DNA of 64,000 bases from positions 99,314 through 163,313 of the forward strand of contig CAMAXE010000005.1 in the NCBI GenBank assembly GCA_945862145.1, given 5' to 3'. This DNA is from Klebsiella pneumoniae. Its GTDB lineage: Bacteria; Pseudomonadota; Gammaproteobacteria; Pseudomonadales; UBA5518. This document shows positions 7,793 through 40,792 of the stretch, one piece after another. The notes under the pieces are model-generated. The model had not been told where the DNA came from. It ran no database searches and saw nothing but the letters and a program-made list of their open reading frames with translations. The position numbers and the translations under genes were made by a program. Numbering within the stretch: position 1 is the stretch's first letter; every line of letters starts with the position of its first letter.

Positions 7793-7841
7793 CACCGGCA
7801 GCGCCCGCGCGGCACCCGTCCTCCGGTCGTCCGGACGGGGT

Positions 7842-8945
7842 CTACTGCGTGGCGGCCGGAAGCGGCAGCAAGCCCCAGCCGCCGAAGACCGCGCGGAGCT
7901 CCTCGCCCGACAGGCCTTCGGTGATGAACACAAGGGTGGATGTAGCGGGCACTCGGGCGGCCAGCGGCAGCTCCACGGGCGCGTGCAACTGGTGGTGCAC
8001 CGCGTGGATGGCAACTGCCTGCGGGTGATCCCTCAAGCGCAACACGCCCTTCACGCGCAGGATGTGCTCGCCCTGCAGCGTGAGCAGCGCGAGCAGGCAG
8101 GCATGCAGGCGTTCCCAGTCGGCGGCGGGGCTCAACTCGAGCGCAATGGTCTGTAGCGCGGAGCCGTGCCGCGGCAACGCCTGCGCGGGCGGCACCCGCA
8201 GCCAGCCGAGGGCATCCGGCCCCGCAGCCGACCCGGCCAGCCCCAAGCCGAAGAGCCGCGCAGCCCGCGCCGGCAGACTGCGCCGGTCGAGCACGGGAGC
8301 GCGAGGATTCAACGCCCGCGCGAGCCGCCGTGTGTGCCTTGCCTCGCGCGGCTCCACCAGATCCGTCTTGGTGAGAACCACACGATCCGCGAGCGCGAGT
8401 TGCCGCGCAAACTCCGGGTAGCGCAGGGCCTGGAGACCTGCATGCCCGGCATCAACGGTGACCACCACGCCATCGAGGCGGCAGCGCATGGCAAGGGTGG
8501 GGTCGCCAAGCAGGCTCATCAGCACTGGCCCGGGATCCGCGCGGCCCGAGAGCTCGATCAGTACACGCCGGAATGGCGGACGGCCTGCGGCGATGCGCAG
8601 GGACTCAAGCCGCGCGAAAGCCTCCGGCAAGTCCGTGCGCAGCGCGCAGCACAGGCAGCCGTTGTCGAGCAACGCGAGCGATTCCTCGCGCACATCGATC
8701 AGCAGGTGATCGACACCGACAGCACCGAGTTCGTTCACGATGACGGCTGCGTCACGGCACTCAGGCCGCCCGAGCAGCGTATTCAGCAGGCTGGTCTTGC
8801 CGCTGCCGAGAAAGCCCGCGAGCAGCGTGACGGGTATGCGTGCGGCCGCGCTCAGAAGGGCGCCTCGCCAGCGAGGAATCGCGGCGCTCCGGGCACCGGC
8901 CCCGGGCGCCCCAGGAGGGCGTGGACGTCGTAGCCGTCTTTCCAC
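7842..8945 (-). CDS. COG0523/CobW-family G3E GTPase (putative metallochaperone)
   Basis: Walker A 'GFLGSGKTSLLN' and metal-binding 'GCLCC' motif. The only canonical start is GTG 8945, which overlaps the upstream amidohydrolase gene by 94 nt; the true start is uncertain. Confidence 0.85.
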   Translation of the reverse strand: MERRLRRPRPPGAPGAGARSAAIPRWRGALLSAAARIPVTLLAGFLGSGKTSLLNTLLGRPECRDAAVIVNELGAVGVDHLLIDVREESLALLDNGCLCCALRTDLPEAFARLESLRIAAGRPPFRRVLIELSGRADPGPVLMSLLGDPTLAMRCRLDGVVVTVDAGHAGLQALRYPEFARQLALADRVVLTKTDLVEPREARHTRRLARALNPRAPVLDRRSLPARAARLFGLGLAGSAAGPDALGWLRVPPAQALPRHGSALQTIALELSPAADWERLHACLLALLTLQGEHILRVKGVLRLRDHPQAVAIHAVHHQLHAPVELPLAARVPATSTLVFITEGLSGEELRAVFGGWGLLPLPAATQ

Positions 8946-10099
8946 ACCCCGCGGTGATGCCGCGGATCCGCGGCGGCGGCGATATCCGCCACCGGATCAC
9001 CCTCGACCAGCAGCAGGTCCGCGGCATAGCCCTCACATAACCTGCCGCGATCGGCGAGTCCCAGCAGCTCCGCCGCCGCCGCGGTGGCAGCGTGCAGGGC
9101 CCGTGCGGGAGACATGCCGAGCGCCGTCATCTCGAGCAGTTCCTGAGCATTGCAGCCGTGGAAATTGAACGGTGTCCCGGCATCGGTGCCCATCGCGATG
9201 CGACCGCCCGCGGCGAGGAAACGGCGAAAGGACTCGCGCTGCATATCGCGGAAACGCAGGGATTTCTCGAGGAGATGGGCAGGCATCCGCCCCTCGGCGT
9301 TGTCCAGCGTGCGGGCAATGGCCGATAGCGTAGGCACCAGGAACACGCCACGGGCGACCATCAAGGCAGCCAGTTCGTCGGTGATCTGGAATCCGTGCTC
9401 GATGGAATCCACGCCCGCCTCGACCGCGTTCAGGATGCCGGGCGCGCCCTGCGCGTGAGCCGCGGAGCGGCGCCCGAGCCTGCGCGCTTCCTCCACAGCC
9501 GCCGTGAGTTCCTCGCGCGTGAGGTGGGCCGCGAGCGGGTCGAGGCCGGGCGTGGCCACTCCGCCGGTGGCGATCAGCTTCACCACGTCCGCGCCCCTTT
9601 TGATGTTCTGCCGCACGGCGCTGACGGCCGCAGCAGCGCCGTCGATCTCGATGCTGAGCAGGTAAGCGTGCCCACCGGTCATGGTGATGGATTTCCCGGC
9701 GCAGACCAGCGTGGGCCCGAGTTCACGTCCCTCGCGGAAGGCGTCCCGCACGGGCATCTCGGTGAACTCGAAACCACCGAGGTCGCGCAGGCTGGTGACG
9801 CCGCCACGCAGGCTCTGCCGGGCCGCCTGCAGCACCTGCAGGCTCGCCCGCTCGCGCGGCGTGGAGAGGATGGTGGCGAAGAAACCCGGATCGCTGCTGC
9901 TGCAGAGGTGGACGTGGCAGTCGATCAGACCGGGCATCAGGGTCGCGCCGGTGGTGTCGATGCGCGTGCAGGCCACACCCTCAAAAGCCGCAAGCGGCGC
10001 CACGCGCAGAATGCGTCCATGCTCGGCCAGCAAGCCAAGGCCCGCGTGGGGACCTGATTCGCCGTCGAACAACAACCCGCCGCCGAAAAGTGTCGCCAT
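8852..10099 (-). CDS. Metal-dependent amidohydrolase superfamily protein
   Basis: 'PGLIDCHVHL' HxH motif, then 'AAHAQG', 'SIEHG' and 'GTDAG' ligand regions typical of the imidazolonepropionase/Xaa-Pro-dipeptidase-like group. Confidence 0.85.
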   Translation of the reverse strand: MATLFGGGLLFDGESGPHAGLGLLAEHGRILRVAPLAAFEGVACTRIDTTGATLMPGLIDCHVHLCSSSDPGFFATILSTPRERASLQVLQAARQSLRGGVTSLRDLGGFEFTEMPVRDAFREGRELGPTLVCAGKSITMTGGHAYLLSIEIDGAAAAVSAVRQNIKRGADVVKLIATGGVATPGLDPLAAHLTREELTAAVEEARRLGRRSAAHAQGAPGILNAVEAGVDSIEHGFQITDELAALMVARGVFLVPTLSAIARTLDNAEGRMPAHLLEKSLRFRDMQRESFRRFLAAGGRIAMGTDAGTPFNFHGCNAQELLEMTALGMSPARALHAATAAAAELLGLADRGRLCEGYAADLLLVEGDPVADIAAAADPRHHRGVWKDGYDVHALLGRPGPVPGAPRFLAGEAPF

Positions 10100-10292: not shown

Positions 10293-11327
10293 ATGAACGC
10301 CGAGCAAGAGCAAACCACGTCGCCGCAGCCGCTCTGCGTGGAACCGCGCTCGGTCTATTCCTACTACCACCTTGCGCCGCCACCTGAAGGCACCGAACCG
10401 CGGCAGAGCCTGCGTTTCGAGCCCAGCTTCGAGGGCGCCGAGGGCTTCCGCGAGCTGATCGAGCTGCGCCCGGGTTTTCAAGTCCTGCTCGGTGACCTGC
10501 ACTACGGCAGCAAGGTCGAGTTCAATCTGCGCGAGAACGCCAGCCTCAAGTTCCACTACCGGCTTTCGGGCGTGAGCGATATCCGCGTCAGCGAAGACGG
10601 ACTGATCCATATCGACGACCATACGGGTGGTGTGCTCCTGCACCCCGACGGCATCGTGAAGCAGGAGTCCTACCGCGCAGGGCAGCACGAGCGCTCGGTC
10701 ACGCTGATCTGCTCGGCCGCATTCCTTGCCGAACGGCTGGCCCGTCTGGGCGCACATCTGCCGGCGGCCATCGCGGCCTATATCGCCGGCGAACCGGCCA
10801 GGCACTACAGCCAGCACGTGCCCCTGCGGGCCGGGATGGCCAGCGCGGCGGCAGCGCTCTTCGGGCTGCCGGCCGCAAGCCCGATCCGGCCGCTGATGGT
10901 CGAGGCGCGGGCACTCGAACTGCTGGCGCTCAGCCTCGAATCCCTTGGTGGCGACGGCCTTGAGGTGGAACGCGCGGATCGGGGCCTCGGCAGCCGCGAC
11001 CTGCAGTGCCTGCAACAGGCACGCCGTATCCTCGAGCAGGAATACCTGTCGCCGCCGACCATCACCGCGCTGGCGCGTGCGGTGGGTATCAACGAAGCCA
11101 AACTGATGCACGCCTTCAAGCAGCTCTTCGGGCAGACGATCTTCGATTTCACCCAGTTGCTCCGGATGGACAAGGCCAAAGGCCTGCTCGAGACCACCGA
11201 CCTCAGCATCACCGAGATCGCTTTTGAGGTGGGCTACGAGTATTCCAGCAATTTCACCACGGCGTTCAAGCGTCACTTCGGCATCACGCCGAGCACCGCG
11301 CGCGATGCCCTGCGCCACAGCGGCTGA
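10293..11327 (+). CDS. AraC/XylS-family transcriptional regulator
   Basis: ORF 10209-11327. C-terminal double HTH 'ITALARAVGINEAKLMHAFKQLFG...ITEIAFEVGYEYSSNFTTAFKRHFGITP'. N-terminal sensor domain of about 240 aa. ATG 10293 chosen; TTG 10209 is the alternative. Confidence 0.85.
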   Translation: MNAEQEQTTSPQPLCVEPRSVYSYYHLAPPPEGTEPRQSLRFEPSFEGAEGFRELIELRPGFQVLLGDLHYGSKVEFNLRENASLKFHYRLSGVSDIRVSEDGLIHIDDHTGGVLLHPDGIVKQESYRAGQHERSVTLICSAAFLAERLARLGAHLPAAIAAYIAGEPARHYSQHVPLRAGMASAAAALFGLPAASPIRPLMVEARALELLALSLESLGGDGLEVERADRGLGSRDLQCLQQARRILEQEYLSPPTITALARAVGINEAKLMHAFKQLFGQTIFDFTQLLRMDKAKGLLETTDLSITEIAFEVGYEYSSNFTTAFKRHFGITPSTARDALRHSG

Positions 11328-11388
11328 GGCGGAATCGCAAAGCAGTTTTTTTCTTTTCAATAAGCCCCGCCATCCGGCCGCTGCTAGC

Positions 11389-11415
11389 CTGCGGATCGCG
11401 ATGCGGGATCCGCAG
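11389..11415. promoter_or_regulatory. 9-bp perfect inverted repeat CTGCGGATC-N9-GATCCGCAG upstream of the operon
   Basis: Read directly. Lies 30 nt upstream of the GTG at 11445 and downstream of a T7-C-T4 run (11346-11357). Could be an operator or an RNA hairpin. Confidence 0.3.
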
Positions 11416-11444
11416 CAACCTGCATCAACGAGGAGTTCCGAACC

Positions 11445-12440
11445 GTGACAGACAATATCCGGGCAATCGTGGCACGCGAGGTCGAGGGCCGCACACGCGG
11501 CAGCGTCGAGGAGATCGACGCGCTCTCGCTGCCCGCCGGCGACGTGGTGGTCGACATCGCCTGCTCCACCCTGAATTACAAGGACGGCCTCGCCATCACC
11601 GGCAAGGGCAAGATCTGCCGCAGCCTGCCCATGGTCTGCGGCATCGACCTCGCGGGCACCGTGCGCGAGAGCCGCAGCCCGGACTGGCAGATCGGCGATC
11701 GCGTGCTGGTGAATGGCTTCGGGCTCTCGGAGCGTTACTGGGGCGGGCTCGCGCAACGTGCGAGCCTGCAGGCGGGTTGGCTGGTGCGCACGCCGGCGGC
11801 CTTCAGCGCCGAGCAGGCCATGGCCCTCGGTACCGCCGGCTACACCGCCATGCTCTGCGTGCAGGCCATCACCGACCACGGCGTCAGTCCCGAGGCCGGC
11901 CCCGTGCTGGTAACGGGCGCAGCCGGTGGCGTGGGCTCCGTCGCCGTGATGCTGCTCTCGGCATTGGGTTACCGCGTGACCGCCGCTACGGGACGGGTTG
12001 AGGAAACCGGGGAATTTCTGCGCGGCCTGGGCGCTGCGGAGTTGATCGGGCGCGAACAACTCGCCCGTGATGCCAAGCCACTCGAAGCCGAGACCTGGGC
12101 TGCAGTGGTCGATACCGTGGGCGACAAGGTGCTGGCCACGGCCATCGCCCAGACGCGCTATGAGGGCATCGTGGCCGCGTGCGGCCTGGCCGGAGGCGTC
12201 GGCCTGCCACTCACCGTGATGCCCTTCATCCTGCGCGGCGTGACGCTGCGGGGCATCGATTCCGTGATGGCCTCGCTGCCGCGGCGCCAGCAAGCGTGGG
12301 ACCGGCTCGCCGAACTCGTCGATCCCGCCATGCTGGCGCGCATTTACCGCGTGGAGCCATTGGCGAAGGCCCCTGAACTCGCTGCGGAACTGTTGGCCGG
12401 ACGAGTGCAGGGCCGCATCGTCATCGACGTGAACGCCTGA
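11445..12440 (+). CDS. YhdH/AcuI-type NADPH-dependent MDR oxidoreductase (acrylyl-CoA reductase-like)
   Basis: 'STLNYKDGLAITGKG' and 'VLVTGAAGGVGS' motifs of the YhdH/YhfP subgroup. GTG start with GAGGAG 9 nt upstream. Confidence 0.85.
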   Translation: MTDNIRAIVAREVEGRTRGSVEEIDALSLPAGDVVVDIACSTLNYKDGLAITGKGKICRSLPMVCGIDLAGTVRESRSPDWQIGDRVLVNGFGLSERYWGGLAQRASLQAGWLVRTPAAFSAEQAMALGTAGYTAMLCVQAITDHGVSPEAGPVLVTGAAGGVGSVAVMLLSALGYRVTAATGRVEETGEFLRGLGAAELIGREQLARDAKPLEAETWAAVVDTVGDKVLATAIAQTRYEGIVAACGLAGGVGLPLTVMPFILRGVTLRGIDSVMASLPRRQQAWDRLAELVDPAMLARIYRVEPLAKAPELAAELLAGRVQGRIVIDVNA

Positions 12441-12450
12441 GGAGGCAGCG

Positions 12451-13998
12451 GTGCCGGAACCCATGCCAATGCGACAGGCTCCCGTCGGGCTGGTGAGCGG
12501 CAACCGCCTGCTTGACCACGCCCGGCTGGGCGCCAATGCACGACGCGCTGCCACCGCGCTGCATCGCGCCGGCATCTGGCAGGGCGATTCCGTGGCGCTG
12601 CTACTGCGCAATGATTTTCCCTGGTTTGAAGCCACTCAGGCGGCCAGCATGCTAGGCGCCTCCACGGTGCCCCTCAACTGGCACCTCACACCGGATGAAC
12701 TCGCCTACATCCTCGACGACTGCGACGCCCGCGCGGTAGTCGCGCACGCTGACCTCCTCACGGAAGCCGTACTCGCCGTGTGCTCGGGCCGCGAGGTGAT
12801 AGCGGTGGAGACACCACCCGAGGTTGCTGCGGCGTATCGCATACCGCCGGAGCGCTGCCGCGCGCCGGGTGCAGTACCGGAGTGGTCTGGCTGGATCGCA
12901 GCGCATGAGGAGTGGAGCGTGGCGCCGCCCGTGATGGCGCAACCCCTGTTCTACACCTCCGGCACCACGGGACGCCCCAAGGGCGTGCGACGCAAATCGG
13001 TAGCCCCCGAGGTTGCCATGACGGCGGTGCGTCGCGGCGCGCTCGCCTTCGGTCTTGAGGGCGAGGATCTGCGCGCGGTGATGACCGGCCCGCTCTACCA
13101 CTCCGCTCCCAACTCCTACGCAATGCGCGTCGTGGCACTGGGCGGCACGCTGGTGCTGCAGCCGCGCTTCGATGCCGCCGAGCTGCTCGCCCTGATCGAG
13201 CGCTGGGGCATCACGCACCTGCATATGGTGCCGACGATGTTCGTGCGGCTACTCGCGCTGCCCCCGGCACTGCGCGCGCAGTACGACATCTCCAGCCTGC
13301 GCTTCGTCTGCCACGGCTCGGCACCCTGTCCGCCCGACATCAAGCGGCAGATGATCGCGTGGTGGGGGCCGGTGATCCACGAGTACTACGCGATGACCGA
13401 GACGGGGATCATCAGCGTCTCCGACAGTGCCGGCTGGACCGCGCATCCGGGCAGCGTGGGGCACGCGGCACCGGGGGTGAAAATCCGCATCATCGCGGAA
13501 GACGCCAGCAGCTGCGCCGAAGGCGTGGCAGGCGAGATACAGGTGAGCTCGGAGACCACCCCGTACTTCGCCTACCACCACGCCGAGGAAAAAACCGCCG
13601 CGGCCCGCGAGGGCGATTTCGTGCGCACCGGCGACATCGGCTACCTGGACGCTGATGGCTACCTTTACATCAGCGACCGCAAATCCGACATGGTCATCTC
13701 GGGCGGCGTGAACATCTATCCCGCCGAGGTGGAACACGAGCTCGTGAATCTCGAGGGCGTGCGCGACTGCGCCGTCTTCGGCATCCCGGACGCCGAGTAC
13801 GGCGAGCGCCTGGTGGCGGTGGTGGAATCCGAATCTGACCTGAGCACCGAGTCGCTGGTGAGCGCGCTGCGCCACCACGTGGCGGGCTACAAGGTGCCGC
13901 GTGAATTCCGCTTCGTGCGGCGGCTCCCGCGGGAAGACTCCGGCAAGATCAAGAAACGCCTGCTGCGCGCCGACTGGCTCGCCGCCCACATCGCGTGA
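12451..13998 (+). CDS. AMP-dependent acyl-CoA synthetase/ligase
   Basis: 'LFYTSGTTGRPKGV' AMP-binding loop, 'TGDIGYLDADGYLYISDRKSDMVISGGVNIYP', C-terminal 'GKIKKRLL'. GTG start 5 nt after AGGAGG. Confidence 0.9.
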   Translation: MPEPMPMRQAPVGLVSGNRLLDHARLGANARRAATALHRAGIWQGDSVALLLRNDFPWFEATQAASMLGASTVPLNWHLTPDELAYILDDCDARAVVAHADLLTEAVLAVCSGREVIAVETPPEVAAAYRIPPERCRAPGAVPEWSGWIAAHEEWSVAPPVMAQPLFYTSGTTGRPKGVRRKSVAPEVAMTAVRRGALAFGLEGEDLRAVMTGPLYHSAPNSYAMRVVALGGTLVLQPRFDAAELLALIERWGITHLHMVPTMFVRLLALPPALRAQYDISSLRFVCHGSAPCPPDIKRQMIAWWGPVIHEYYAMTETGIISVSDSAGWTAHPGSVGHAAPGVKIRIIAEDASSCAEGVAGEIQVSSETTPYFAYHHAEEKTAAAREGDFVRTGDIGYLDADGYLYISDRKSDMVISGGVNIYPAEVEHELVNLEGVRDCAVFGIPDAEYGERLVAVVESESDLSTESLVSALRHHVAGYKVPREFRFVRRLPREDSGKIKKRLLRADWLAAHIA

Positions 13999-15200
13999 CG
14001 CGAAAGACCATGCCCGGCATAGCGATCATTGGCGCGGCTGCAACACCCGTAGGACGCCTCGCACCGCGCGCCGGCGCCATGGCCGAGGGCTTCGATCACG
14101 ACGTGCTCGGCGCCGTGGCGCTGCAAGCCATGAGCGAGGCCGGCATCACGCCGCGTGACATCGACAGCGCGGTCTTCACCGCGCCACCACCGACCACCCG
14201 CCAGCTCGGCTTCGGCAGTTTCATGGCTGCGCAACTGGGCCTGCGCCTGCGCGGCCAGCTCGCGGAAGTGCAGGAAATGGGCATCACCGGCGGCCTCGCT
14301 TTCGACCAGGCGGCGGCGGACGTGATGCTGGGCCGCGCGGATTTCGCACTGGCCTTGGGCGTTGCCATCCAGAGTGGCGCCGACAGCGGCATGGCCATGG
14401 ACCACTCGGTACGCGTGGTCGGTGACGTCGACTTCCAGTCGCCGTTCGGTCTCACGCCCATCGCCTGGTACGCCTTCGACGCCGCACGCTACATGCATGA
14501 GACGGGCGCCACGCGTGCCGATATCGCGCATGTCGCGTTGAAGAGCCGCGGCTTCGCCAGACACAACCCGCTCGCCCAGTTCCGCGAGCCACTCGGCCTA
14601 GACGAAGTCCTGCGACAACCGATGGTGGTGGAGCCGTTGGGTCGACTCGAGGTGCCCGCGCGTGCCGACGGCGCGATCTGCCTGGTGCTGTGCTCACCGG
14701 AACGGGCGCGCGCACTCGGTGTGCCGGCCGTCGAGGTCACGGGGCGCGGATTTGCCAGCGATGGCCACCACCAGATGGGCGATCACCACCACGACATCAC
14801 GGCGTTCCCCGCTGCACATGGTGCGGCAGCAGCAGCACTCACCGAGGCACGCTGCTCGATAAAAGACATTGATATCGCCGAACTCTACGCACCCTGCACC
14901 ATCACCGAGGTGCTGGTGAGCGAGGCGCTCGGCATGTTTCCGCGCGGGCATGGCGCCGCAGCCGCGCGCGAGGGGCGCACCGGCCCCGGTGGCGACCGGC
15001 CGCTGAACACCTCGGGCGGCTGCCTCGCCCGCGGCCATCCGCCCTCACTCACCGCGCTGTACGGTTTGCTGGAGCTGCGCGAGCAATTGCTCGGCAGGGC
15101 GGGAGCGCGCCAGTTGCAGGGCGCACGTCGCGGCCTGCACATCTGCGAACTGGGTAATTACAACGCGGCTCTGGCGCACGTGCTGGAGCGACTCGCATGA
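13995..15200 (+). CDS. Thiolase-like protein, SCP-x/Ltp type
   Basis: Thiolase-fold protein with 'IAIIGAAATPVGR' N-terminus and C-terminal 'NTSGGCLARGHP'. Overlaps both neighbours by 4 nt. ATG 14010 is an alternative start. Confidence 0.8.
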   Translation: MTRKTMPGIAIIGAAATPVGRLAPRAGAMAEGFDHDVLGAVALQAMSEAGITPRDIDSAVFTAPPPTTRQLGFGSFMAAQLGLRLRGQLAEVQEMGITGGLAFDQAAADVMLGRADFALALGVAIQSGADSGMAMDHSVRVVGDVDFQSPFGLTPIAWYAFDAARYMHETGATRADIAHVALKSRGFARHNPLAQFREPLGLDEVLRQPMVVEPLGRLEVPARADGAICLVLCSPERARALGVPAVEVTGRGFASDGHHQMGDHHHDITAFPAAHGAAAAALTEARCSIKDIDIAELYAPCTITEVLVSEALGMFPRGHGAAAAREGRTGPGGDRPLNTSGGCLARGHPPSLTALYGLLELREQLLGRAGARQLQGARRGLHICELGNYNAALAHVLERLA

Positions 15201-15628
15201 GCCTGCCACAGGTAGTGCTCCCGGGCCGGCGCGGCATACCGCCACGCGTGAACACCTTCACCGCGCGGTTCTGGAGCGCACTCGAAGACGGCGCATTGCC
15301 GGGCACCCGCTGCAACGCCTGCGCGCATCTCACATTCCCGCCGCGCCGCATCTGCATTGCCTGCGGCGCGCAGGATCCGGAGTGGATCGAGCTTTCAGGC
15401 GCAGGCACGTTGTATTCGGCCACGGTGATCCACGCCGGACCCTCTCTCTACTGGGCGGGCGGGCCTTACACCGTCGGGATCATCGATCTCGCCGAGGGGC
15501 CGCGCCTGGTGACGCGCGTGCTGGGCGCATTGCCCCCACCGATCGGCAGCCCGATGCAGATGGTCGTGACGCGCCACGACGACGGCTGCCTATTCGCGGC
15601 CACGCTGGCCGCAGCCGCAGACAATTGA
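15197..15628 (+). CDS. DUF35 OB-fold/Zn-ribbon protein (partner of the thiolase-like protein)
   Basis: 'CNACAHLTFPPRRICIACG' CxxC...CxxC ribbon followed by an OB-fold-like region. ATGA overlap with the thiolase-like gene. Confidence 0.8.
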   Translation: MSLPQVVLPGRRGIPPRVNTFTARFWSALEDGALPGTRCNACAHLTFPPRRICIACGAQDPEWIELSGAGTLYSATVIHAGPSLYWAGGPYTVGIIDLAEGPRLVTRVLGALPPPIGSPMQMVVTRHDDGCLFAATLAAAADN

Positions 15629-15642
15629 GGAGAGGACATTCC

Positions 15643-16731
15643 ATGGAGATCGCGGTACTCGGTGGAGGCCACGGCTGCTACGCCGCCGCGGCAGAACTCT
15701 CGGAGGCGGGGCATCGCGTACGGCTCTGGCGCCGCGACCAGGAAGCCTTCGCGCCCGTGCTCGCCGCACGCGCCATCAGCGTGAAGGATTTCGCGGGCGA
15801 GCGTGACGTGCCGATCGCCCTGCCGACCTGCTCGCTGAAGGAGGCCGCGGAAGGCGCCGCACTCATCGTGATCCCGCTTCCCGCCACAACCCACGAATCG
15901 CTCGCCGCGGCCCTGGCGCCCCTGCTGGCCGACGGGCAGGTGGTATTCCTGCCCCCGGGAACTTTTGGCGGCTTCCTGATGGCCAGTGCGATGCACGCAG
16001 CGGGCAACCGCGCCGATGTCTCCTTCGCCGAGACCGGCACCCTGCCCTACCTCGCCCGCAAGCACGGGCCGCGTCACGTGGTGATCAGTGGTTTCGGCAA
16101 GCGGCTGCCCACCGGCGTGTTCCCGCTGCGTAACGCCGCGCACGCACTCGGGGTCATCCGTATGGCCTACCCCGCGGTGGAAGACTGCGGCGACCTGCTA
16201 TCCGGTGCGCTGATGAATGCGGGCCCCATCATCCACCCGCCGCTCATCGTGATGAACGCGGGCCCCCTGGAGCACTTCCCCTCGTGGGACATCCACAACG
16301 AGGGCACCCAGCCGGCGATCCGTCGCGTCACGGACGCACTTGATGCCGAGCGCATCGCGGTGCGCGAGGCACTGGGCTACGGAGCGCCGCACTTTCCGCT
16401 GAAAGACCACTACGCCAAAGAGGGCGAGGAGTGGATGTATGGTCGCGGCGCCCACGACAAGCTCACCGACAGCGGTGACTGGCGCGAGAACATCGTGCTC
16501 ACCGAGCACCGCTACATGCTGGAAGACACGCGCCTGAGCCTGTCATTCATCAGCTCCGTCGGCCGCTGGGCCGGCGTTCCGACACCACTGTGCGACGGCT
16601 TTCTCGCCATCGGCGCGGCCATCACCGGCCGTGACTTCCGCGCCGAGGGTCGCACGCTGGAAAAGCTCGGCCTGCACACACTGACGCGGGCGTCCATGCG
16701 GGAACTGCTCGCCACGGGGCTGCGCGCATGA
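15643..16731 (+). CDS. NAD(P)-dependent octopine/nopaline (opine) dehydrogenase-family protein
   Basis: ORF 15382-16731. ATG 15643 is preceded by GAGGAGAGG. Rossmann 'IAVLGGGHGCYAAAAELSEAGHRV'. The rest is collinear with opine-dehydrogenase-family proteins. Confidence 0.8.
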   Translation: MEIAVLGGGHGCYAAAAELSEAGHRVRLWRRDQEAFAPVLAARAISVKDFAGERDVPIALPTCSLKEAAEGAALIVIPLPATTHESLAAALAPLLADGQVVFLPPGTFGGFLMASAMHAAGNRADVSFAETGTLPYLARKHGPRHVVISGFGKRLPTGVFPLRNAAHALGVIRMAYPAVEDCGDLLSGALMNAGPIIHPPLIVMNAGPLEHFPSWDIHNEGTQPAIRRVTDALDAERIAVREALGYGAPHFPLKDHYAKEGEEWMYGRGAHDKLTDSGDWRENIVLTEHRYMLEDTRLSLSFISSVGRWAGVPTPLCDGFLAIGAAITGRDFRAEGRTLEKLGLHTLTRASMRELLATGLRA

Positions 16732-17720
16732 GCAGCATCGATTGCGTTGCCTCCGTAGGTGCGGGACGCATGGGCCGCGGGATCGCGCTCAGCTTCGCCT
16801 TCGCGGGGCTGCCGGTACGGCTGATCGATCTCAAGCAACGCGCAGCCGACGAGGCAGAACGGCTCTTCGCCGAGGCGCATGCGGAATTGCGCGCAGACCT
16901 CGCGCTGATGCAGCGCCTCGGCCTGCTGGATGCCACACAGGCAGCGCGCGTGGAAGCGCTGGTCGAGTACGTGGGGCATGAGGGCGCAGCCGCCGCGCTG
17001 CAGGCACCGCTGATTTTCGAGGGCGTGCCCGAGCGGATGGACGCCAAGCGCGAGTGCCTCGCCTTCATCGGGGCTCACGCACCCGCGGACGCGATCGTCG
17101 CCTCCACCACCTCCACGTTCCTCGTCACGGAGCTCGCCGGCCTGCTCCCCGGACCCGAGCGATTCCTGAACGCGCACTGGCTGAACCCCGCGCACCTGAT
17201 GCCGCTGGTCGAGATCAGCCGCTCGGCGCTCACGGCAGACGCTGTGGTGGAACGCCTGGCAGATACCTTGCGCGCCATGGGCAAGGTGCCCGTGGTCTGC
17301 GGCCCGGCGCCGGGCTACATCGTGCCCCGCATACAGGCCCTCGCCATGAACGAGGCCGCGCGCATCGTCGAAGAGGGCATCGCCACGGCGGAGGCCGTCG
17401 ACCTCGCAGTGCGCACCGGTTTCGGTCTGCGCTTTGCGGTACTCGGCTTGCTCGAGTTCATCGACTGGGGCGGCGGCGATATCCTCTACTACGCCTCGCG
17501 CTACCTCAGCACCGAACTCGGCGATCGCTACCGCGCACCGGAGATTGTCGAGCGCAACATGCACGAGGGACGCAACGGCCTGCGCGATGGTGCCGGTTTT
17601 TACGACTGGCAGGGTCGTGATGTCGCGGCTTACCGCGAAAAGCGCCTCGGCGACTTCAGCCGCATGCTCACCCATGCAGGCTTGCTGCCGCAGCCGGGCG
17701 CGGCACGCGCACTCGACTGA
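16728..17720 (+). CDS. 3-hydroxyacyl-CoA dehydrogenase family protein
   Basis: 'VASVGAGRMGRGIA' Rossmann, 'HWLNPAHLMPLVEI' and 'PGYIVPRI' family motifs. ATGA overlap with the preceding gene. Confidence 0.85.
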   Translation: MSSIDCVASVGAGRMGRGIALSFAFAGLPVRLIDLKQRAADEAERLFAEAHAELRADLALMQRLGLLDATQAARVEALVEYVGHEGAAAALQAPLIFEGVPERMDAKRECLAFIGAHAPADAIVASTTSTFLVTELAGLLPGPERFLNAHWLNPAHLMPLVEISRSALTADAVVERLADTLRAMGKVPVVCGPAPGYIVPRIQALAMNEAARIVEEGIATAEAVDLAVRTGFGLRFAVLGLLEFIDWGGGDILYYASRYLSTELGDRYRAPEIVERNMHEGRNGLRDGAGFYDWQGRDVAAYREKRLGDFSRMLTHAGLLPQPGAARALD

Positions 17721-17737
17721 GCAAGAGGAAAAGCATC

Positions 17738-18739
17738 ATGCACGCGGAACTCGGGCTGGCTGAACTCGAACGGGTGCGCGCAAGCATCGCTCCTTACATC
17801 GTGGAGACGCCATCGCTGCGCTGGGGGGGCGGCTCGCTAGCCGCGCGTCTCGGTGCAGGCACCGTGGTGGAGGTGAAACTGGAGTTGTTCCAGCGTACGG
17901 GCACCTTCAAGGCCCGCGGCGCGATCAATACCATGCTGCATCTGGACGCGGCGCAGCGTACACGCGGCGTCACGGCCGTGAGCGCCGGCAACCACGCCGT
18001 TGCTACCGCATGGGCGGCACAACAACTCGGCATCGGCGCGAAGATCCTGATGCCGCAGGGCGCCAACCCCTATCGACTCGCACTGGCGCGCTCCTTCGGC
18101 GCCGAGATCGTGATCGCACCCTCGCACCACGCCATGTTCGAGATGGTGAAGGTCCTGCAGGAGCAGGAGGGACGCTACTTCGTGCATCCCTTCGAGGGAC
18201 CGCTGGCGGTGCAAGGCAGCGCTTCCGCGGGGCTCGAGTTCACGGAGCAGACAGAGCCGGTGGACGTCATGATCCTTCCGGTGGGCGGTGGCGGCCTCTG
18301 CGCGGGTTTTGCCGCGGCGATCAGGCAGCGCTGGCCCGATGTGACGATCTACGGGGTAGAGCCAGAAGGCGCCAATGCCATGTACCGCAGCTTCCGCAGT
18401 GGCAAGGCCGAGGTGCTGGAATCGATGAACTCCATCGCCGACAGCCTGTCTCCGCCACGCGCCGAGCCCTGGACCTTCGCGGCCTGTCGTGAACTGGTAG
18501 AAGACATCGTACTGATCGACGACGCCATGTTGCGCGATGCCATGCTCGAGGTTTTTTACGGCCTGAAACTCGCGGTGGAACCCGCGGGCGCCGCCACTAC
18601 CGCGGCACTCCTCGGACCACTGCGCGAGCGCTGTGCGGGCAAGCGCGTGGGCCTGATCGTCTGCGGCGCGAACATGGACGCCGAGGGCTACTGCCGCCAT
18701 ATCACCCAGGCGCTGGCAGACCGTGCCGCCGGCGGTTGA
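17738..18739 (+). CDS. PLP-dependent serine/threonine dehydratase-family enzyme (fold type II)
   Basis: PLP-lysine motif '[11 protein letters not shown]', 'SAGNHA', and glycine loop 'PVGGGGL'. Confidence 0.85.
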
Positions 18740-20045
18740 GGCGCGCGTCCGCGCCTGCCTGGCGCAGACGGAGCACTTCCGCGACCGCGGGGCCTTCATC
18801 ACCGTTGACGCGAAGACTGCGCTGGCTTGCGCGCGCGCGATCGACAGCGCGCCTGGCGACGGCATGCTCGAGGGCATGACGCTCGCCATCAAAGACAATA
18901 TCCATGTAGCCGGTTTGCCGAACACGGCAGGCACACCGGCGCTGCGCAACTTCGTGCCCACGCAGGACGCCACAGTGGTGGCGCGGCTGCGGGCGGCAGG
19001 CGCCGTGATCATCGGCAAGACCAACCTGCATGAGCTCGCCTTCGGCATCACCAGCCACAACGTAGCCTTCGGCGCTGTCCGCAACGCGCTGGATCCGGCG
19101 TGCATCGCCGGTGGCAGCAGCGGCGGCACTGCTGTGGCCGTAGCGCTGGGGATGGCGCGCGCGGGCCTGGGCACCGACACCGCGGGTTCGGTGCGGATTC
19201 CCGCGGCGCTGAACGGCATCGTGGGCCTGCGCCCCACCACCGGTCGCTATCCACACGACGGCATAACGCGCATCACCTGGAGCCGCGATACTGCCGGGCC
19301 CATGGCACAGACCGTGAGTGATGTCGCGCTGCTCGATGCCGTCATCACCGGCGAGGATCCGGTGAGCGAGGCTGCAACGCTGCACGGGCTGCGGCTCGGA
19401 CTGCCCACGGCGCACTTCTTCGATAATCTCGATCCAGCATTGGCCGCACGCGTCGATCACTGCCTGCAATCCCTGCGGGCAGCCGGCGTGGAGCTGATCG
19501 ACGTGGACCTCGCGGAAATACCCGTGCTAGATGCGCGCACCGGCCCGGCCGCACTTTTCGAGACGGCGAGCCTGCTGCCCGCCTATCTGCGCGATAACGG
19601 CATCGACATCAGCCCCGCGGAGTTCGCGTCGCAGATCGCAAGCCTCGATGTGCGTGGCATCGTGGAGGCGGCGTTTGCCGGCGCGGTAAGCGAATCGACG
19701 TTCCGCGAAATCGAGGACGAGGTACGGCCTGCGATGCGACAGCTCTACGCGGAGTGCTTCCGCTCACAGCGGATCGAGGCCCTGCTGTTTCCCACCACGC
19801 CACTGCCCGCACGGCCACTGCTGGACGCGCTCGACGCAGTGCAGCACGGGGGCGAAATAGCCTCTGCATTCCGCAACTACGTGCGCAACACCAACCCCGG
19901 CAGCAACGCGGGCCTGCCAGGCATCAGCCTGCCTGCGGGCTACGCCGAAGGCATGCCCGTGGGTTTGGAGCTCGACGGTCCGGAGGGCTCTGACCGGCGC
20001 TTGCTCGCGATCGCGCTGGCGCTGGAGTCGCTCCTGGCTGCATAG
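18723..20045 (+). CDS. Amidase-signature (AS) family amidase
   Basis: 'AIKDNI' (Lys), 'GGSSGG', '[13 protein letters not shown]'. 17-nt overlap with the preceding gene. Confidence 0.85.
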
Positions 20046-20177
20046 AGCACACGGATCTTCGGGTAGCCCGAACATGCCGATCGAATAAAAACCCGACGCG
20101 GACGCATAAGAGCGGCATCCCGACGCGCCCGTATACTGCGGCGCTCCATGTAATCGTCCCTCTCCGGATCCGACCCC

Positions 20178-21161
20178 ATGAGCACACCGCTACGCATCAT
20201 CGACGCCGCCACCGTGCGCCGGCTCGCGCCTCCGGAAAAATTGATCGCGTGGATGAAACCCGCGATGGTCTCGACCAGTCGGCGCGCAGTGGAATTACCG
20301 CTCCGTCGCGGCATGGTGTTGCCGGGTGGGCTCGGTGTCATCGGGATGATGCCGGGCTACGTGGGCGAGGACACCGCCTCGGCCGGCGTGAAGCTCGTCA
20401 GTCTCGTGCCTCCCGAGCGGCGGCGGGGATCGAGCCATCTCGGATTGATGGTGCTTTACGACGCTGACGGCCTGGTACCTCAAGCCATTCTCTGCGGCGC
20501 GACCGTCACGGCCTTGCGCACGGCGGCCGTGAGCGCGCTCGCCACATCCGTTCTCGCGCGCCCCGAGGCGAGCGTGCTCGCGATACTCGGTGCCGGCGAG
20601 CAGGCCGCCGCACACATCCCGGCGCTGATGGCAGTGCGCCGCTTCAAGAAGATCGTGATCTGGGCCCGCCGACGTGAACAGGCCGATGCGCTCGCCGCCA
20701 GCTTGCAGATTCCTGCGGAGCTCGTGGTCGCCTCCAGCGTGCAGGAGGCCGTGGCAGCGGCAGATGTGGTGTGCACGCTCACCTCATCCAGAGAGCCGAT
20801 CCTGCAAGGCGAATGGCTTGCGCCCGGCGCGCATATCAACCTCGTGGGCTCCAGCAGCGCCGATGCGCGCGAGGCAGACGACGCCGTCGTCCAGCGCAGC
20901 CGTTTCTTCGTCGATTACATCCCCTCGACGCTGGATCAGGCAGGCGAGTTCCTGCACGCGAAAAACGCAGGTCTCGTCGATGACTCCCACATCGTGGCGG
21001 AACTGGGTGCCGTCCTCGAGGGCACCGCAAAGGGTCGTCGACACGCGGAAGAAATCACGGTGTACAAGTCACTCGGCATAGCAGCCCAGGACGTGGTGAC
21101 GGCACGAGAGGTCTACCGCGCCGCCTGTGCAGGAAATCTCGGGGTCATGGCCGCCGTCTGA
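20178..21161 (+). CDS. Ornithine cyclodeaminase/mu-crystallin family protein
   Basis: 327 aa. 'VTALRTAAVSA' and Rossmann 'LAILGAGEQA' typical of the OCD/mu-crystallin family. Confidence 0.85.
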   Translation: MSTPLRIIDAATVRRLAPPEKLIAWMKPAMVSTSRRAVELPLRRGMVLPGGLGVIGMMPGYVGEDTASAGVKLVSLVPPERRRGSSHLGLMVLYDADGLVPQAILCGATVTALRTAAVSALATSVLARPEASVLAILGAGEQAAAHIPALMAVRRFKKIVIWARRREQADALAASLQIPAELVVASSVQEAVAAADVVCTLTSSREPILQGEWLAPGAHINLVGSSSADAREADDAVVQRSRFFVDYIPSTLDQAGEFLHAKNAGLVDDSHIVAELGAVLEGTAKGRRHAEEITVYKSLGIAAQDVVTAREVYRAACAGNLGVMAAV

Positions 21162-21225
21162 GAGGCGGCGCGTCACGCGGGTCCGCGCCACGCCCGGCTC
21201 TGTCTCGTCCATCAGGGAGAGTTGA

Positions 21226-22527
21226 ATGCACCCGTATTGCCGTATGTCCCCGCTGCTTATCCTGCTGCTGACGCCGCCTGCCAGTGCCGCTCCGGCAGAC
21301 CCGGCGCAGACCTGCGCCAGCTACAACCAGCAGTCACACCGCGCAGCCGAGCGACTGGACCGAGAACTGCAGATCGCCAATAGCCCGCTGCTTGCCGCGG
21401 ACCTGGCGGCAGGCCGCAACCCAAAGCTCGCGGCCTACCTGGATCAGTTCGCGGCCGATGTGGCAGTGCATGGTTTGCAGGGGAGACCGGAGCCTGCGCG
21501 CATCCAAGACGTGAAGGCGCACTACCAGCACGTGATGGGAGCTGCCACCCCCGCAATCCGTGATCCGGACAGCGCGCTTCAGGAAGACGTTCGTGTCGTC
21601 GCCGGGCCAATGGCTGCGCACCGCTATCACGCCGCCCTGCACGTGCCGGGCTTTCCGCCTGATTTCGCGTACTACGACACGCAGCTTCCCCTGCAGTTGC
21701 GAGGGCAGACGCTATTCGACTACGGCGGGCCTGAAGGGGCAATTCGGGAACGCTGGTCCAACCACGACAACAAGTTCCGCACCGGGCAGCTCTGGCGATA
21801 CATGCTGAACCATCCGCGTGACGCTGATCCAACGCGCTTCCGAACGGACCTGCGTCCGGGAAGCGATGCCACAGGCGCTGCGATCGATCGCGACGGGGAG
21901 CGGTTGAATGCCGTCTTCAATGGCGAACTCGCGCTGGTGGCGGGAGATTTCACGTTGGTCGACGGCGCCTTCCGATACGGCCCGCCAAGCCTGCCAAAGG
22001 GCGTTGAACGCCCGGTCACGGAGGCCGAGGGCCTGCAGTTCGTGAAACGCTGGTTCAGCCGCGATCAGCTTCCGGTCGATGCCGACTCAGACTTCGGCTG
22101 GCTAGCCGACGATGCCATCCTGCACGGGGCGGGCTGCGACGACGCAGCGGCAGCCAACGCGCCCGCGATCGCAGGAGGTGCGGGATCAGGCCGACTTGCA
22201 GCGCAAACACTGCAGCGCATTCTCATGGAGCGCGTGGGGCCGAAAATCCATCATCGGCCGCTGGAAGCCGTCGCCCCGTCTGCGCCTTATGACCGGCTTC
22301 CTGTCTCCGGCTGGTCGCGCGTCGCGTTCCGGATGCAGCTCGGTGGAACACACCCGACCGGGGGCGCCACGGGCGTTGCCCGGGGCGTGCCCCTTCAGTA
22401 CTGCGCTCAGTGGATCATGAGATTGCGCACGGTATCGCCCACAGATGTCAGGGCGCAGGAAATCTGGCTCGACCTCAGGCCGCTTGAGGCGCCTGCGGCC
22501 GGTTGTGCCGAGTTGCAGGCGCACTGA
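21226..22527 (+). CDS. Hypothetical secreted protein (no family recognised)
   Basis: 433-aa ORF with GGGAGAG 4 nt upstream of the ATG. Signal-like 'LLILLLTPPASAAPA'. Third codon positions look less GC-biased than in the neighbours. No motif I can name. Confidence 0.5.
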   Translation: MHPYCRMSPLLILLLTPPASAAPADPAQTCASYNQQSHRAAERLDRELQIANSPLLAADLAAGRNPKLAAYLDQFAADVAVHGLQGRPEPARIQDVKAHYQHVMGAATPAIRDPDSALQEDVRVVAGPMAAHRYHAALHVPGFPPDFAYYDTQLPLQLRGQTLFDYGGPEGAIRERWSNHDNKFRTGQLWRYMLNHPRDADPTRFRTDLRPGSDATGAAIDRDGERLNAVFNGELALVAGDFTLVDGAFRYGPPSLPKGVERPVTEAEGLQFVKRWFSRDQLPVDADSDFGWLADDAILHGAGCDDAAAANAPAIAGGAGSGRLAAQTLQRILMERVGPKIHHRPLEAVAPSAPYDRLPVSGWSRVAFRMQLGGTHPTGGATGVARGVPLQYCAQWIMRLRTVSPTDVRAQEIWLDLRPLEAPAAGCAELQAH

Positions 22528-23251: not shown

Positions 23252-23254
23252 GCC

Positions 23255-24385: not shown

Positions 24386-24439
24386 CGCCGCCCCCGCGCG
24401 CCTATGATCCTGCCGGGATTCTGGACCGGTACCTCGGGC

Positions 24440-25351: not shown

Positions 25352-25360
25352 GCCCGCGTC

Positions 25361-26521: not shown

Positions 26522-26545
26522 GGCTTCCTCTTGCAAAGGACAGGA

Positions 26546-28442: not shown

Positions 28443-28484
28443 GGCGTATTCCTGTTGTTGCTCTGGAGAAGGGGCTGCGCGGCT

Positions 28485-33339: not shown

Positions 33340-35089
<1,750 letters not shown>

Positions 35090-35119
35090 GACACGCGGAC
35101 ACAACACCCGGCATCGCTC

Positions 35120-40761: not shown

Positions 40762-40792
40762 TAGGCACACCTCCAAACGACACCCCGCTCCG

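Follow-up and report, generated by a model that had tools for sequence, protein, structure and literature searches.

What compound would be degraded by a gene set that combines coenzyme A (CoA) thioester enzymes with an opine-dehydrogenase-like protein, a dehydratase, an amidase and a probable imine reductase? The question is raised by positions 10293-22527 of a 64,000-nucleotide stretch of contig CAMAXE010000005.1 (assembly GCA_945862145.1), called here the window, which has a G+C content of about 67%. The run consists of the gene for an AraC-family regulator and ten co-directional genes. An initial annotation, made from the sequence alone, had named the gene families and their order and had taken the run for one pathway; Pfam and NCBIfam scans of the window open reading frames (ORFs) bore out the families and the order. 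The answer proposed here, to which we give slightly better than even chances, is that the run belongs to a composite island for the catabolism of an imported nitrogen-containing alcohol. The island would be made of a core module, a cassette of an opine-dehydrogenase-like (opine-DH-like) and a 3-hydroxyacyl-CoA-dehydrogenase-family (3HCDH) gene, and several lineage-specific modules. It appears to be about 35 kb long, to begin before position 178 and to cross the left window edge, so that 10293-22527 would be its right-hand third.

A core module in aquatic bacteria

A metagenome scan anchored on the AMP-forming acyl-CoA ligase gave 18 non-redundant loci of at least 12 kb, the core loci, with ligases 56-68% identical to that of the window. 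They point to a core module, AraC-AcuI-acyl-CoA ligase-thiolase-like-DUF35, which appears to be conserved across aquatic Gamma- and Alphaproteobacteria; in most of the 18 the order and spacing of the core genes are as in the window. The usual partners of this module are a divergent GMC oxidoreductase and aldehyde dehydrogenase, a flavoprotein exported by the twin-arginine translocation (TAT) system, an NTF2-like lipoprotein, a TonB receptor and a cytochrome c. Accessory genes recur at such loci, among them a TonB receptor (at least 20 loci), a dihaem cytochrome c (17) and RidA (7), and in L091 and L103 a threonine-aldolase-family gene adjoins DUF35. Synteny is lost when the ligase identity falls below about 53%.

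Loci that hold both the CoA genes and the opine-DH cassette (L011/L087, L015, L019, L051) also hold homologues of the genes upstream of 10293. In a variant arrangement (L119, L120, L136) the ligase stands with the cassette and a pair of genes for a pyridoxal phosphate (PLP) enzyme and an OCD-family enzyme, and AcuI, the thiolase-like and the DUF35 genes are missing. The full order thiolase-like-DUF35-opine-DH-3HCDH-PLP-amidase-OCD is kept in the relative L175, where the amidase is 75% identical and a 297-aa protein without a Pfam match, known by position alone, occupies the place after OCD. The description of the run as one set stands as far as its order is conserved in relatives, with broad synteny confined to AraC-AcuI-ligase-thiolase-like-DUF35. 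Because of this synteny and of a shared upstream motif, the genes can be regarded as functionally linked and not adjacent by chance, as had been supposed; sub-blocks of the run recur in many unrelated genomes. The notion of a single self-contained pathway unit had to be given up. The opine-DH-like and 3HCDH genes form a separate cassette, outside the window lineage the amidase lacks any syntenic orthologue, and the unit reaches upstream to 178 and beyond.

Within 10293-22527 the genes are tightly packed, probably into two transcription units, one from AcuI to the amidase and the other from OCD to the secreted protein. Between the genes no terminator-like site above chance was present on the + strand, and the counts in a promoter and terminator scan did not exceed those in shuffled sequence. 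The coordinates were compared with those of an independent gene caller on identical metagenome contigs. Three of the overlaps described initially, 15197-15200 (ATGA), 16728-16731 (ATGA) and 18723-18739 (17 nt), were matched by the caller. The fourth, 13995-13998, is uncertain: it requires a GTG start at 13995, and the caller picked ATG 14010 in the window and the overlapping start in L175. The opine-DH-like gene starts at ATG 15643, which is preceded by the ribosome-binding site GAGGAGAGG; this start replaced the first ORF start, 15382.

A candidate regulon

In the 64-kb window 0.46 copies of the motif YTATGCGAT are expected; there are four, each in a promoter region of the island. Five window sites match the pattern ATCGCA(N0-1)ARG. 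Every one of them lies upstream of a transcription unit of its own and points the same way as that unit (distances in Table 1), and the four intergenic regions that hold the motif total about 650 nt. In the other loci some matches inside the ligase coding sequence, at the conserved EYYAMTE peptide, were discounted. A degenerate copy, GACGCATAAG, lies about 65 nt upstream of the OCD gene. In other loci the motif is found at the equivalent divergent promoter (L015, L033, L099) or upstream of AraC (L019, L109). Upstream of AcuI the motif takes a bipartite form (AATCGCAAAG, about 15 nt, CAATAAGC); in 10 of the listed loci its first half is of the ATCGCAA type, and about 7 others carry diverged variants. 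Such a bipartite layout is as expected of an AraC-type operator. Judged from its promoter regions, the island has the appearance of a single regulon governed by the linked AraC regulator. The earlier label "AraC-linked" has thereby gained a candidate operator motif, its best in-silico support, and the linked unit extends beyond the coordinates first assigned to it.

A thiolase-fold protein without the nucleophilic cysteine

The protein encoded after the ligase matches Pfam Thiolase_N and Thiolase_C_1. PDB alignments showed EMGITGG at the place where thiolases have ACASGG or SACSAG. In 28 of 28 orthologues the nucleophile position, whose cysteine forms the acyl-enzyme intermediate of thiolases, has no cysteine; the segment reads xLG[ILVT][TS]GG, and G91 is invariant. 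In thiolases the HDCF motif supplies a histidine and the acid/base cysteine; here an invariant Y293-A294-P295-C296 stands in its place, and the GHP histidine persists in an invariant R341-G342-H343-P344. The protein had been annotated as thiolase-like; it cannot be a thiolase, because the nucleophilic cysteine is lacking. The comparison with Ltp-type/DUF35 pairs made at the same time was apt. The protein carries the Gly-for-Cys and Tyr-for-His signature of Sal and Ltp2. In these two DUF35-bound steroid retro-aldolases the tyrosine stands in YDCY (Sal; Tyr302, Cys304) and YDHF (Ltp2; Tyr294, Tyr344), according to a 2025 study (PMC12329534). The residue correspondence with Sal and Ltp2 was derived through their common alignment to thiolases and not by direct alignment. 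The window protein probably performs a retro-aldol cleavage too, because it has lost the cysteine and has a tyrosine in place of the HDCF histidine, as they have.

The likeness to Sal-Shy and Ltp2-ChsH2 (PMC12329534) includes the SCP-2-thiolase fold, an adjacent DUF35 zinc-ribbon/OB partner, the replaced cysteine with glycine at or next to the site, the tyrosine, and an aldehyde dehydrogenase and a CoA ligase nearby. Other features differ. The cysteine of the Y-A-P-C motif is at +3 from the tyrosine, in contrast to YDCY and YDHF. The site equivalent to Ltp2 Tyr344 and Sal Gln352 is the retained GHP histidine, His343. The DUF35 protein (143 aa) stands alone, without fusion to a MaoC hydratase; the locus has no hydratase gene, and the context is non-steroid. 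The DUF35 gene overlaps the thiolase-like gene by an ATGA and encodes a CxxC...CxxC zinc ribbon and an OB fold; its product is a candidate active-site partner. Taken together, the thiolase-like protein is probably an independently remodelled, lyase-type enzyme that resembles Sal and Ltp2 and should not be filed in their family.

The profile scores against known structures were 175 bits for 4yzo, 147-170 for archaeal thiolases, 157-158 for BbsB, 139 for 9myr (labelled 'nonspecific lipid-transfer protein') and 112 for Ltp2 (6ok1). The top match, 4yzo, a 'putative acyl-CoA acyltransferase', also has no nucleophilic cysteine (NTSGSGG) but retains an HD motif. The diversity of cysteine-less thiolase-fold proteins of the DUF35 type may be greater than the literature on Sal and Ltp2 suggests. 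Canonical beta-oxidation was rejected as the function of the locus: the thiolase-like protein has no nucleophilic cysteine, and acyl-CoA dehydrogenase and hydratase genes are missing. Neither a MaoC nor a crotonase gene was called or annotated in the first 25.4 kb or so of the window, in the L173 flank or in the related loci examined.

The opine-DH-like/3HCDH cassette

The opine-DH-like protein scores 101 bits against a cut-off of 30 with PF02317 (Octopine_DH) and has both the Octopine_DH helical domain and an N-terminal Rossmann domain. It aligns end to end with CENDH (PDB 1bg6; profile E = 9e-49). The histidine of IIHPP and the arginine and aspartate of HRYMLED align with AVMHP and TRYFFED of CENDH, the latter segment also with NRYLTED of octopine dehydrogenase; we take these residues to be the catalytic His202, Arg292 and Asp297 of CENDH. 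The end-to-end alignment and the three conserved residues are shared with CENDH and other opine dehydrogenases. The window enzyme, however, belongs to a distinct subfamily with a conserved insertion (HYAKEGDEWMYG...DSGDWRE), and enzymes of its type are paired with a 3HCDH-family gene and do not occur in opine (Agrobacterium) or metallophore contexts. The 3HCDH protein scores 498 bits with PRK08269 (cut-off 427), has both 3HCDH domains and carries the catalytic histidine in an H-W-L-N-P motif.

Close counterparts of the opine-DH-like protein occur in a lake metagenome-assembled genome (L007, 99%) and a second lake genome (L008, 93%). A scan of one genome per species, anchored on this protein, gave at least 591 genome matches, at an unusually high identity of 64-72%, in Gamma-, Beta- and Alphaproteobacteria and in actinomycetes; 78 of these loci were compared with the window proteins by tblastn. 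The 3HCDH gene directly follows the opine-DH-like gene in 76 of them, across Pseudomonas, Paraburkholderia, Acinetobacter, sphingomonads and actinomycetes. By contrast, the ligase, AcuI, thiolase-like, DUF35, PLP, OCD and secreted-protein genes are each found in only 1-7 of the 78. The amidase query matched at eight loci, with amidases 31-42% identical that lie mostly in iac-like clusters. In the ORF clustering an MFS transporter of the anion type (53 loci) and an AraC regulator resembling AndR (48 loci) came out as the usual neighbors; on a Rhodobacterales plasmid the cassette stands with a TRAP transporter and a GntR regulator. Because these usual neighbors are only a transporter and a regulator, the pair is regarded as an independent unit. 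By its gene neighborhoods, it is a small self-sufficient mobile cassette that would work without a CoA ligase elsewhere and has been fused into the operon in the window lineage. The plasmid database holds the cassette with generic annotation only, in Amycolatopsis it lies in a housekeeping region that is uninformative on function, and literature searches on the pair found nothing relevant.

In at least 11 genomes of Pseudomonas, Acinetobacter, Paraburkholderia and sphingomonads the cassette stands beside or inside an iac-like cluster (MarR, amidase, ACAD, NTF2, Rieske alpha/beta, SDR and reductase genes; loci L022, L023, L038, L039, L046, L047, L049, L054, L061, L065, L080 and L089). A paper on the Marinomonas iac genes supports the iac-like identity of these clusters and says nothing on the cassette itself. 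The indole-3-acetate neighborhood hints that the cassette substrate could be related to plant or algal compounds. No iac genes are present among the annotated genes of the window. In L092 (1-1704, -) a CN-hydrolase gene (nitrilase-superfamily amidase) stands after the opine-DH-like gene, at the place normally taken by 3HCDH.

Lineage-specific modules and the upstream part of the island

The PLP dehydratase-amidase and the OCD-secreted protein pairs appear to be lineage-specific modules. In L014, L033, L051, L120, L133 and L136 there are PLP orthologues, 47-55% identical, close to the opine-DH-like gene or to the core module. The OCD gene adjoins the PLP gene in L120 and L136, as had been surmised of a dehydratase-OCD pairing, which thus recurs beside core genes; in the window the amidase separates the two. 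A fold-type-II PLP dehydratase alongside an OCD-family enzyme is shared with BhcB/BhcD (beta-hydroxyaspartate) and EutB/EutC (hydroxyectoine). Membership in these systems was rejected, with NCBIfam scores below half of the equivalog cut-offs in every case (BhcB 205 of 550, BhcD 162 of 500, EutB 196 of 413, EutC 153 of 472), and the EutB/EutC and SbnA/SbnB logic invoked at first stays an analogy. The OCD gene is found together with the gene for the 433-aa secreted protein in L013 (12136-14500; secreted protein 43% identical) and L095 (11581-13900; secreted protein 75% identical), and the two may form a functional pair. The secreted protein has no match in Pfam, NCBIfam or PDB. A 55%-identical amidase from Halieaceae stands in an unrelated gene context. 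Assignment of the window amidase as an IacH-type or PRK07488 'indoleacetamide hydrolase' was rejected: it scores 529.2 bits against a cut-off of 532 and is only 31-42% identical to the amidases of the iac-like clusters.

Upstream of 10293 the flavoprotein FAD4 has a twin-arginine signal (TRRQLM) and a KSGGHS motif, presumably the covalent-FAD histidine motif of BBE/VAO-type flavoproteins, and the NTF2-like protein has a lipobox; the latter is fused to cytochrome c in L092. A search of representatives with FAD4 matched only environmental 'FAD/FMN-containing dehydrogenase' entries, and a plasmid-database search with the flavoprotein gave no informative match. The TauD gene is split by a frameshift. 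Because the same split is found in independent metagenome assemblies, it is probably a real pseudogene. An intact paralogue lies just past the left window edge (sites: window 6954-8014, -; L173 14674-15492), and TauD is also present in the freshwater variants L116, L122 and L125. Besides intact TauD, the left flank in the same genome holds a TonB receptor, a CN-hydrolase, a cytochrome c, a second TonB receptor, an amino-acid permease and a PALP gene; the CN-hydrolase (L173 13080-14033) lies between the TonB receptor and the cytochrome c.

AcuI and the described systems

The AcuI protein reaches 435.9 bits against the equivalog cut-off of 440 of NF051456 and 403.9 against 297.25 of the subfamily model TIGR02823. 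Over its full length it scores 347 bits with E. coli YhdH (PDB 1o89) and 315 bits with AcuI (PDB 5gxe). Characterised YhdH/AcuI members (E. coli, Rhodobacter sphaeroides, Ruegeria pomeroyi) reduce acrylyl-CoA and not C16 enoyl-CoA. Genes dddD, dddP, prpE and dmd are missing from the gene context at the locus.

The peg operon of Sphingopyxis (pegB, pegC, pegD, pegA, pegE, pegR) converts a terminal alcohol to a CoA-activated carboxylate (PMC11644497). In gene content only, all of its parts have counterparts in the island: a TonB receptor, a permease, a GMC dehydrogenase, an aldehyde dehydrogenase, an acyl-CoA synthetase and an AraC regulator. The island adds AcuI, the thiolase-like/DUF35 pair, the periplasmic BBE-type flavoprotein, the lipoprotein and the nitrogen-handling enzymes. 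In a plasmid database the ligase had homologues of at most 49% identity, and Sphingopyxis was not among the best matches listed. The SphR regulon of Pseudomonas aeruginosa (sphA, sphBCD) includes an AraC regulator, the TAT-secreted flavin oxidoreductase SphC, the lipoprotein cytochrome SphB and the threonine-aldolase-like SphD (PMC3900636, PMC11893366). An AraC regulator, outer-membrane uptake, a TAT flavoprotein, a periplasmic lipoprotein and a cytochrome c are in common, which is an architectural parallel only. In contrast to SphB, the island lipoprotein is NTF2-like and the cytochrome c is a separate gene; a PLP threonine-aldolase-like gene is present in few island-related loci, and the large cytoplasmic CoA part is absent from sphBCD. 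Eukaryotic sphingosine degradation passes from hexadecenal through hexadecenoic acid and hexadecenoyl-CoA to an enoyl-CoA reductase (PMC10864336) and has the trio of aldehyde dehydrogenase, acyl-CoA synthetase/ligase and enoyl-CoA reductase in common with the island.

Literature searches on the full gene set found nothing relevant, in agreement with the earlier statement that no described pathway matches it. The parts are of known families and the architecture is akin to peg, sph and Sal; this is not a categorically new system. In the searches made, the gene combination, the third cysteine-less thiolase-fold variant and the widespread opine-DH/3HCDH cassette appear to be undescribed.

Proposed pathway and competing explanations

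We infer the chemical steps and their order from the enzymes, whose family membership, signals, cysteine loss, synteny and motif positions were observed. The substrate would enter through the TonB-dependent receptor and would be oxidized in the periplasm by the TAT-exported BBE-type flavoprotein together with the NTF2-like lipoprotein and cytochrome c. The MFS/GPH transporter would import the oxidized substrate. In the cytoplasm the GMC oxidoreductase and the aldehyde dehydrogenase would convert a primary alcohol to a carboxylate, which the AMP-forming ligase would turn into a CoA ester. The cysteine-less thiolase-fold enzyme with DUF35 would then cleave a 3-hydroxyacyl-CoA by a retro-aldol reaction, not by thiolysis, to a short acyl-CoA and an aldehyde, and the AcuI-type reductase would saturate an enoyl-CoA or acrylyl-CoA made by the route. 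The PLP dehydratase, the amidase and the OCD-type imine reductase, joined in relatives by RidA and CN-hydrolase, would handle a nitrogen fragment of the beta-hydroxy-alpha-amino-acid or amide type. A substrate bearing a primary alcohol and an amino or amide group, of the amino-alcohol or hydroxy-amino-acid type, is favored because the accessory enzymes are all of amine, imine, amide or beta-hydroxy chemistry.

Several points weigh against this scheme. With no enoyl-CoA hydratase and no acyl-CoA dehydrogenase at the locus, the scheme does not say where the 3-hydroxyacyl-CoA would come from. Nor does it name a source of acrylyl-CoA, although AcuI stands about as near to proven acrylyl-CoA reductases as an orthologue would. 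The thiolase-like protein is nearer to DUF35-associated true thiolases (BbsB, archaeal) than to Ltp2, and its cysteine is not at +2 from the tyrosine as in Sal. Since the cassette mostly occurs without a CoA ligase, it is hard to place in a CoA pathway, and a free acid may be the substrate of the 3HCDH-family enzyme. Outside the lineage, synteny gives no backing to the amidase, CobW and amidohydrolase, each being absent from all 18 core loci. The five motif matches, against 2.5 expected, are not significant as a count; only their placement is.

Two substrate classes are the most coherent candidates, and each leaves gaps. The better one, although we think it unlikely, is a sphingoid base or a related 2-amino-1,3-diol lipid (sphingosine, phytosphingosine, deacylated ceramide, possibly the sulfonolipid capnine). 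After a periplasmic flavocytochrome oxidation, as proposed for SphB/SphC, C1 would be oxidized to give a beta-hydroxy-alpha-amino acid, and C2-C3 cleavage would release a long-chain (2-en)al. Aldehyde dehydrogenase, CoA ligase and enoyl-CoA reductase would process the aldehyde, while the PLP dehydratase, RidA and OCD would take the amino-acid head group. The parallel to the SphR regulon (AraC, TAT flavoprotein, lipoprotein; PMC11893366, PMC3900636) speaks for it, with cytochrome c in 17 loci and fused in L092, and so do the threonine-aldolase-family gene beside DUF35, the match of the enzyme trio to the eukaryotic hexadecenal route (PMC10864336), and TauD genes that closely resemble taurine dioxygenase and would suit a 2-aminoalkanesulfonate head group. 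It is opposed by the closeness of AcuI to acrylyl-CoA rather than C16 enoyl-CoA reductases, by a GPH-type transporter and TonB receptor atypical for lipids, and by the rarity (3 loci) of the threonine-aldolase-like gene. The closeness of AcuI, at the equivalog threshold, is in turn an argument for 3-substituted propyl or propionyl compounds: aminopropyl polyamines, 3-aminopropanol, homocholine, beta-alanine derivatives or sulfonium compounds of the dimethylsulfoniopropionate (DMSP)/gonyol type. These would be oxidized, activated with CoA and subjected to beta-elimination to acrylyl-CoA, which AcuI would reduce to propionyl-CoA. The best models of the aldehyde dehydrogenase (PuuC, aminobutyraldehyde and betaine-aldehyde dehydrogenases) and of the GMC enzyme (choline dehydrogenases) agree with such substrates, and RidA, the opine-type secondary-amine dehydrogenase and CN-hydrolase suit amine chemistry. 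By our reasoning, a 5-substituted 3-hydroxypentanoate would need just the ligase, a 3-hydroxyacyl-CoA-processing enzyme and AcuI, and no acyl-CoA dehydrogenase or hydratase. We rate this class below the sphingoid bases. Against it, no recognisable gene for a beta-alanyl-CoA ammonia-lyase, DMSP lyase, DddD or DmdA is present, the role of the thiolase-like/DUF35 pair becomes ad hoc, and the window genome comes from freshwater lakes, where to our knowledge sulfonium osmolytes are not major solutes. A DMSP lyase next door was considered and rejected; the neighboring cupin is ChrR-like (Cupin_7, 201 bits, against 21 bits for DMSP_lyase) and not syntenic.

The remaining explanations concern mainly the unity of the island. 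The initial annotation had proposed one two-branch pathway, confined essentially to 10293-22527, for an amide- or imine-linked conjugate of an amino or imino acid with a carboxylic acid. The tight packing with its start/stop overlaps, the whole order kept in a relative with a 75% identical amidase, and the ability of an amidase, an opine-type dehydrogenase and CoA enzymes to split and process such a conjugate are in its favor. It is nevertheless improbable, since the amidase is at none of the 18 core loci and has its 55%-identical homologue in an unrelated context, the core module works without the opine-DH, PLP and OCD genes in most genomes, the cassette occurs without the core module in at least 70 genomes, and the regulon motif ties in units outside 10293-22527. 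The opposite view, that unrelated catabolic cassettes were piled side by side and fused into one operon without pathway meaning, would account for the mosaic composition, for a cassette that is mobile, on plasmids and beside iac-like auxin genes, and for a CobW, an amidohydrolase and an amidase unique to the lineage. It does not account for accessory modules that recur beside the core in rearranged orders across families (opine-DH-like in 6 of 18 core loci, PLP with OCD in L120 and L136, OCD with the secreted protein in L013 and L095, RidA in 7 loci), for the start/stop overlaps that join modules, or for the common upstream motif with its degenerate copy before OCD, and its probability is judged lower still. 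The last candidate is the side chain of a steroid or bile acid, or else an isoprenoid acid, for example a phytol derivative; its hindered 3-hydroxyacyl-CoA would be cleaved by the thiolase-like/DUF35 aldolase. Cholesterol oxidases are found among GMC and VAO/BBE-type flavoproteins, and ketosteroid isomerases among NTF2-like proteins. The characterised cysteine-less thiolase-fold aldolases, Sal and Ltp2, all act on steroid side chains and are followed by aldehyde dehydrogenase and CoA ligase (PMC12329534), and an allylic alcohol would yield an enoyl-CoA directly. Yet the many nitrogen-handling genes would be unexplained, the thiolase-like protein is no close sequence relative of Sal or Ltp2, and KstD, Ksh, Hsa and MaoC-hydratase are missing among the annotated genes of the window and flank, in which several ORFs have no family match or were unscanned. 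This candidate is very unlikely, the least probable of those considered.

The composite island for a nitrogen-containing alcohol is the explanation we prefer. A more far-reaching version of it would be an undescribed and widespread aquatic route for an abundant amino-alcohol-type compound (sphingoid bases, sulfonolipids or polyamine-derived alcohols), with periplasmic flavocytochrome oxidation and a third independently evolved cysteine-less thiolase-fold/DUF35 C-C lyase, and with the opine-DH-like/3HCDH pair as a new cassette spread horizontally among Proteobacteria and Actinobacteria. This version is speculative, and we would sooner expect it to fail than to hold.

Features of the island and rest of the window

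The features are collected in Table 1.

Table 1. Genes and candidate operator of the island within the window. Core loci are counts out of 18; motif distances are in nt upstream of the gene start.
Feature	Position	Strand	Core loci	Motif	Basis and remarks
NTF2-like (DUF4440/SnoaL_2; SnoaL) lipoprotein, LAGC lipobox	178..660	-	16		Pfam and N-terminus
MFS_2/GPH-family transporter	657..1988	-	6	67	motif ATCGCATAAG
TAT-exported BBE-like FAD oxidoreductase (FAD4)	2183..3670	+	15	79	RRQLM signal, KSGGHS motif
Aldehyde dehydrogenase	3663..5189	-	15		best models PuuC and aminoaldehyde dehydrogenase, below cut-offs
GMC oxidoreductase, choline-dehydrogenase-like, no signal peptide	5186..6805	-	16	83
TauD-family dioxygenase, frameshift-split	6954..7792 (fragments 6954-7241, 7271-7792)	-
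CobW/COG0523 GTPase, lineage-specific	7842..8738	-	0
Amidohydrolase, Xaa-Pro-dipeptidase-like, lineage-specific	8852..10099	-	0	55
AraC-family regulator (HTH)	10293..11327	+			Pfam/NCBIfam; orthologues 46-65% identical adjoin AcuI in core loci
Candidate operator: ATCGCAAAG, ~15-nt spacer, CAATAAGC	11334..11372	+			upstream of AcuI
YhdH/AcuI-family NADPH enoyl(acrylyl)-CoA reductase (MDR)	11445..12440	+	16	103	NCBIfam
AMP-forming acyl-CoA ligase	12451..13998	+			Pfam/NCBIfam; anchor of metagenome scan
Thiolase-fold (SCP-x-type) protein without nucleophilic Cys, probable aldol-lyase	14010..15200 (alternative start 13995)	+	15
DUF35 partner, C4 zinc ribbon and OB fold	15197..15628	+	14		Pfam
Opine-dehydrogenase-superfamily enzyme (Octopine_DH), uncharacterised subfamily	15643..16731	+	6		Pfam; alignment with CENDH, PDB 1bg6
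3HCDH-family enzyme	16728..17720	+	5		PRK08269; adjoins opine-DH-like gene in 76 of 78 genome loci
Fold-type-II PLP Ser/Thr-dehydratase-like enzyme (PALP)	17738..18739	+	2		Pfam/NCBIfam
Amidase-signature (AS) amidase, GGSSGG motif, lineage-specific	18723..20045	+	0		Pfam/NCBIfam
OCD/mu-crystallin-family enzyme, probable imine reductase	20178..21161	+	2		Pfam/NCBIfam
Secreted 433-aa protein with signal peptide, family-less	21226..22527	+			adjoins OCD gene

Convergent with the operon, at 22562-26536, are genes for a ChrR-type double cupin, DUF2891, an SDR and a cytochrome P450, none of which is syntenic with the island elsewhere. They are followed at 26607-30185 (-) by a peptidase M2 gene (angiotensin-converting-enzyme-like, 703 bits) that adjoins a gamma-glutamyltranspeptidase gene. 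A type IV pilus/MSHA-like or type II secretion cluster occupies 30428-42764 (PilM-like protein, secretin, AAA_22 ATPase, T2SSE with MshEN domain, T2SSF, and a pseudopilin with an N-methylation motif). At 43997-47473 (+) a 1158-aa ORF overlaps several antisense ORFs, one of which (45035-46354) has no Pfam match; the coding strand here is putative. Further on lie a second amidase-signature amidase (52052-53659), an OPT oligopeptide transporter (54986-56965, -) and a TonB-dependent receptor (59922-62300, -). The genes at 52052-62300 would give the region further capacity for peptide and amide uptake.

Significance

If the retro-aldol assignment is true, the aldolase chemistry of the Sal/Ltp2 type extends beyond steroids. 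The predicted operator is a handle for reporter-based searches for the inducer. The cassette, which is annotated only generically in Pseudomonas, Acinetobacter, Paraburkholderia, Amycolatopsis and Streptomyces, is a cheap target for fitness and enzyme screens in tractable hosts. Carriers of the core module include Halieaceae (Luminiphilus), Woeseiaceae and Steroidobacteraceae. Should the module prove to be what its genes suggest, a dedicated and regulated route for a compound of the dissolved organic nitrogen or carbon pool, missing from current pathway maps, would be common to many Proteobacteria of lakes and oceans.

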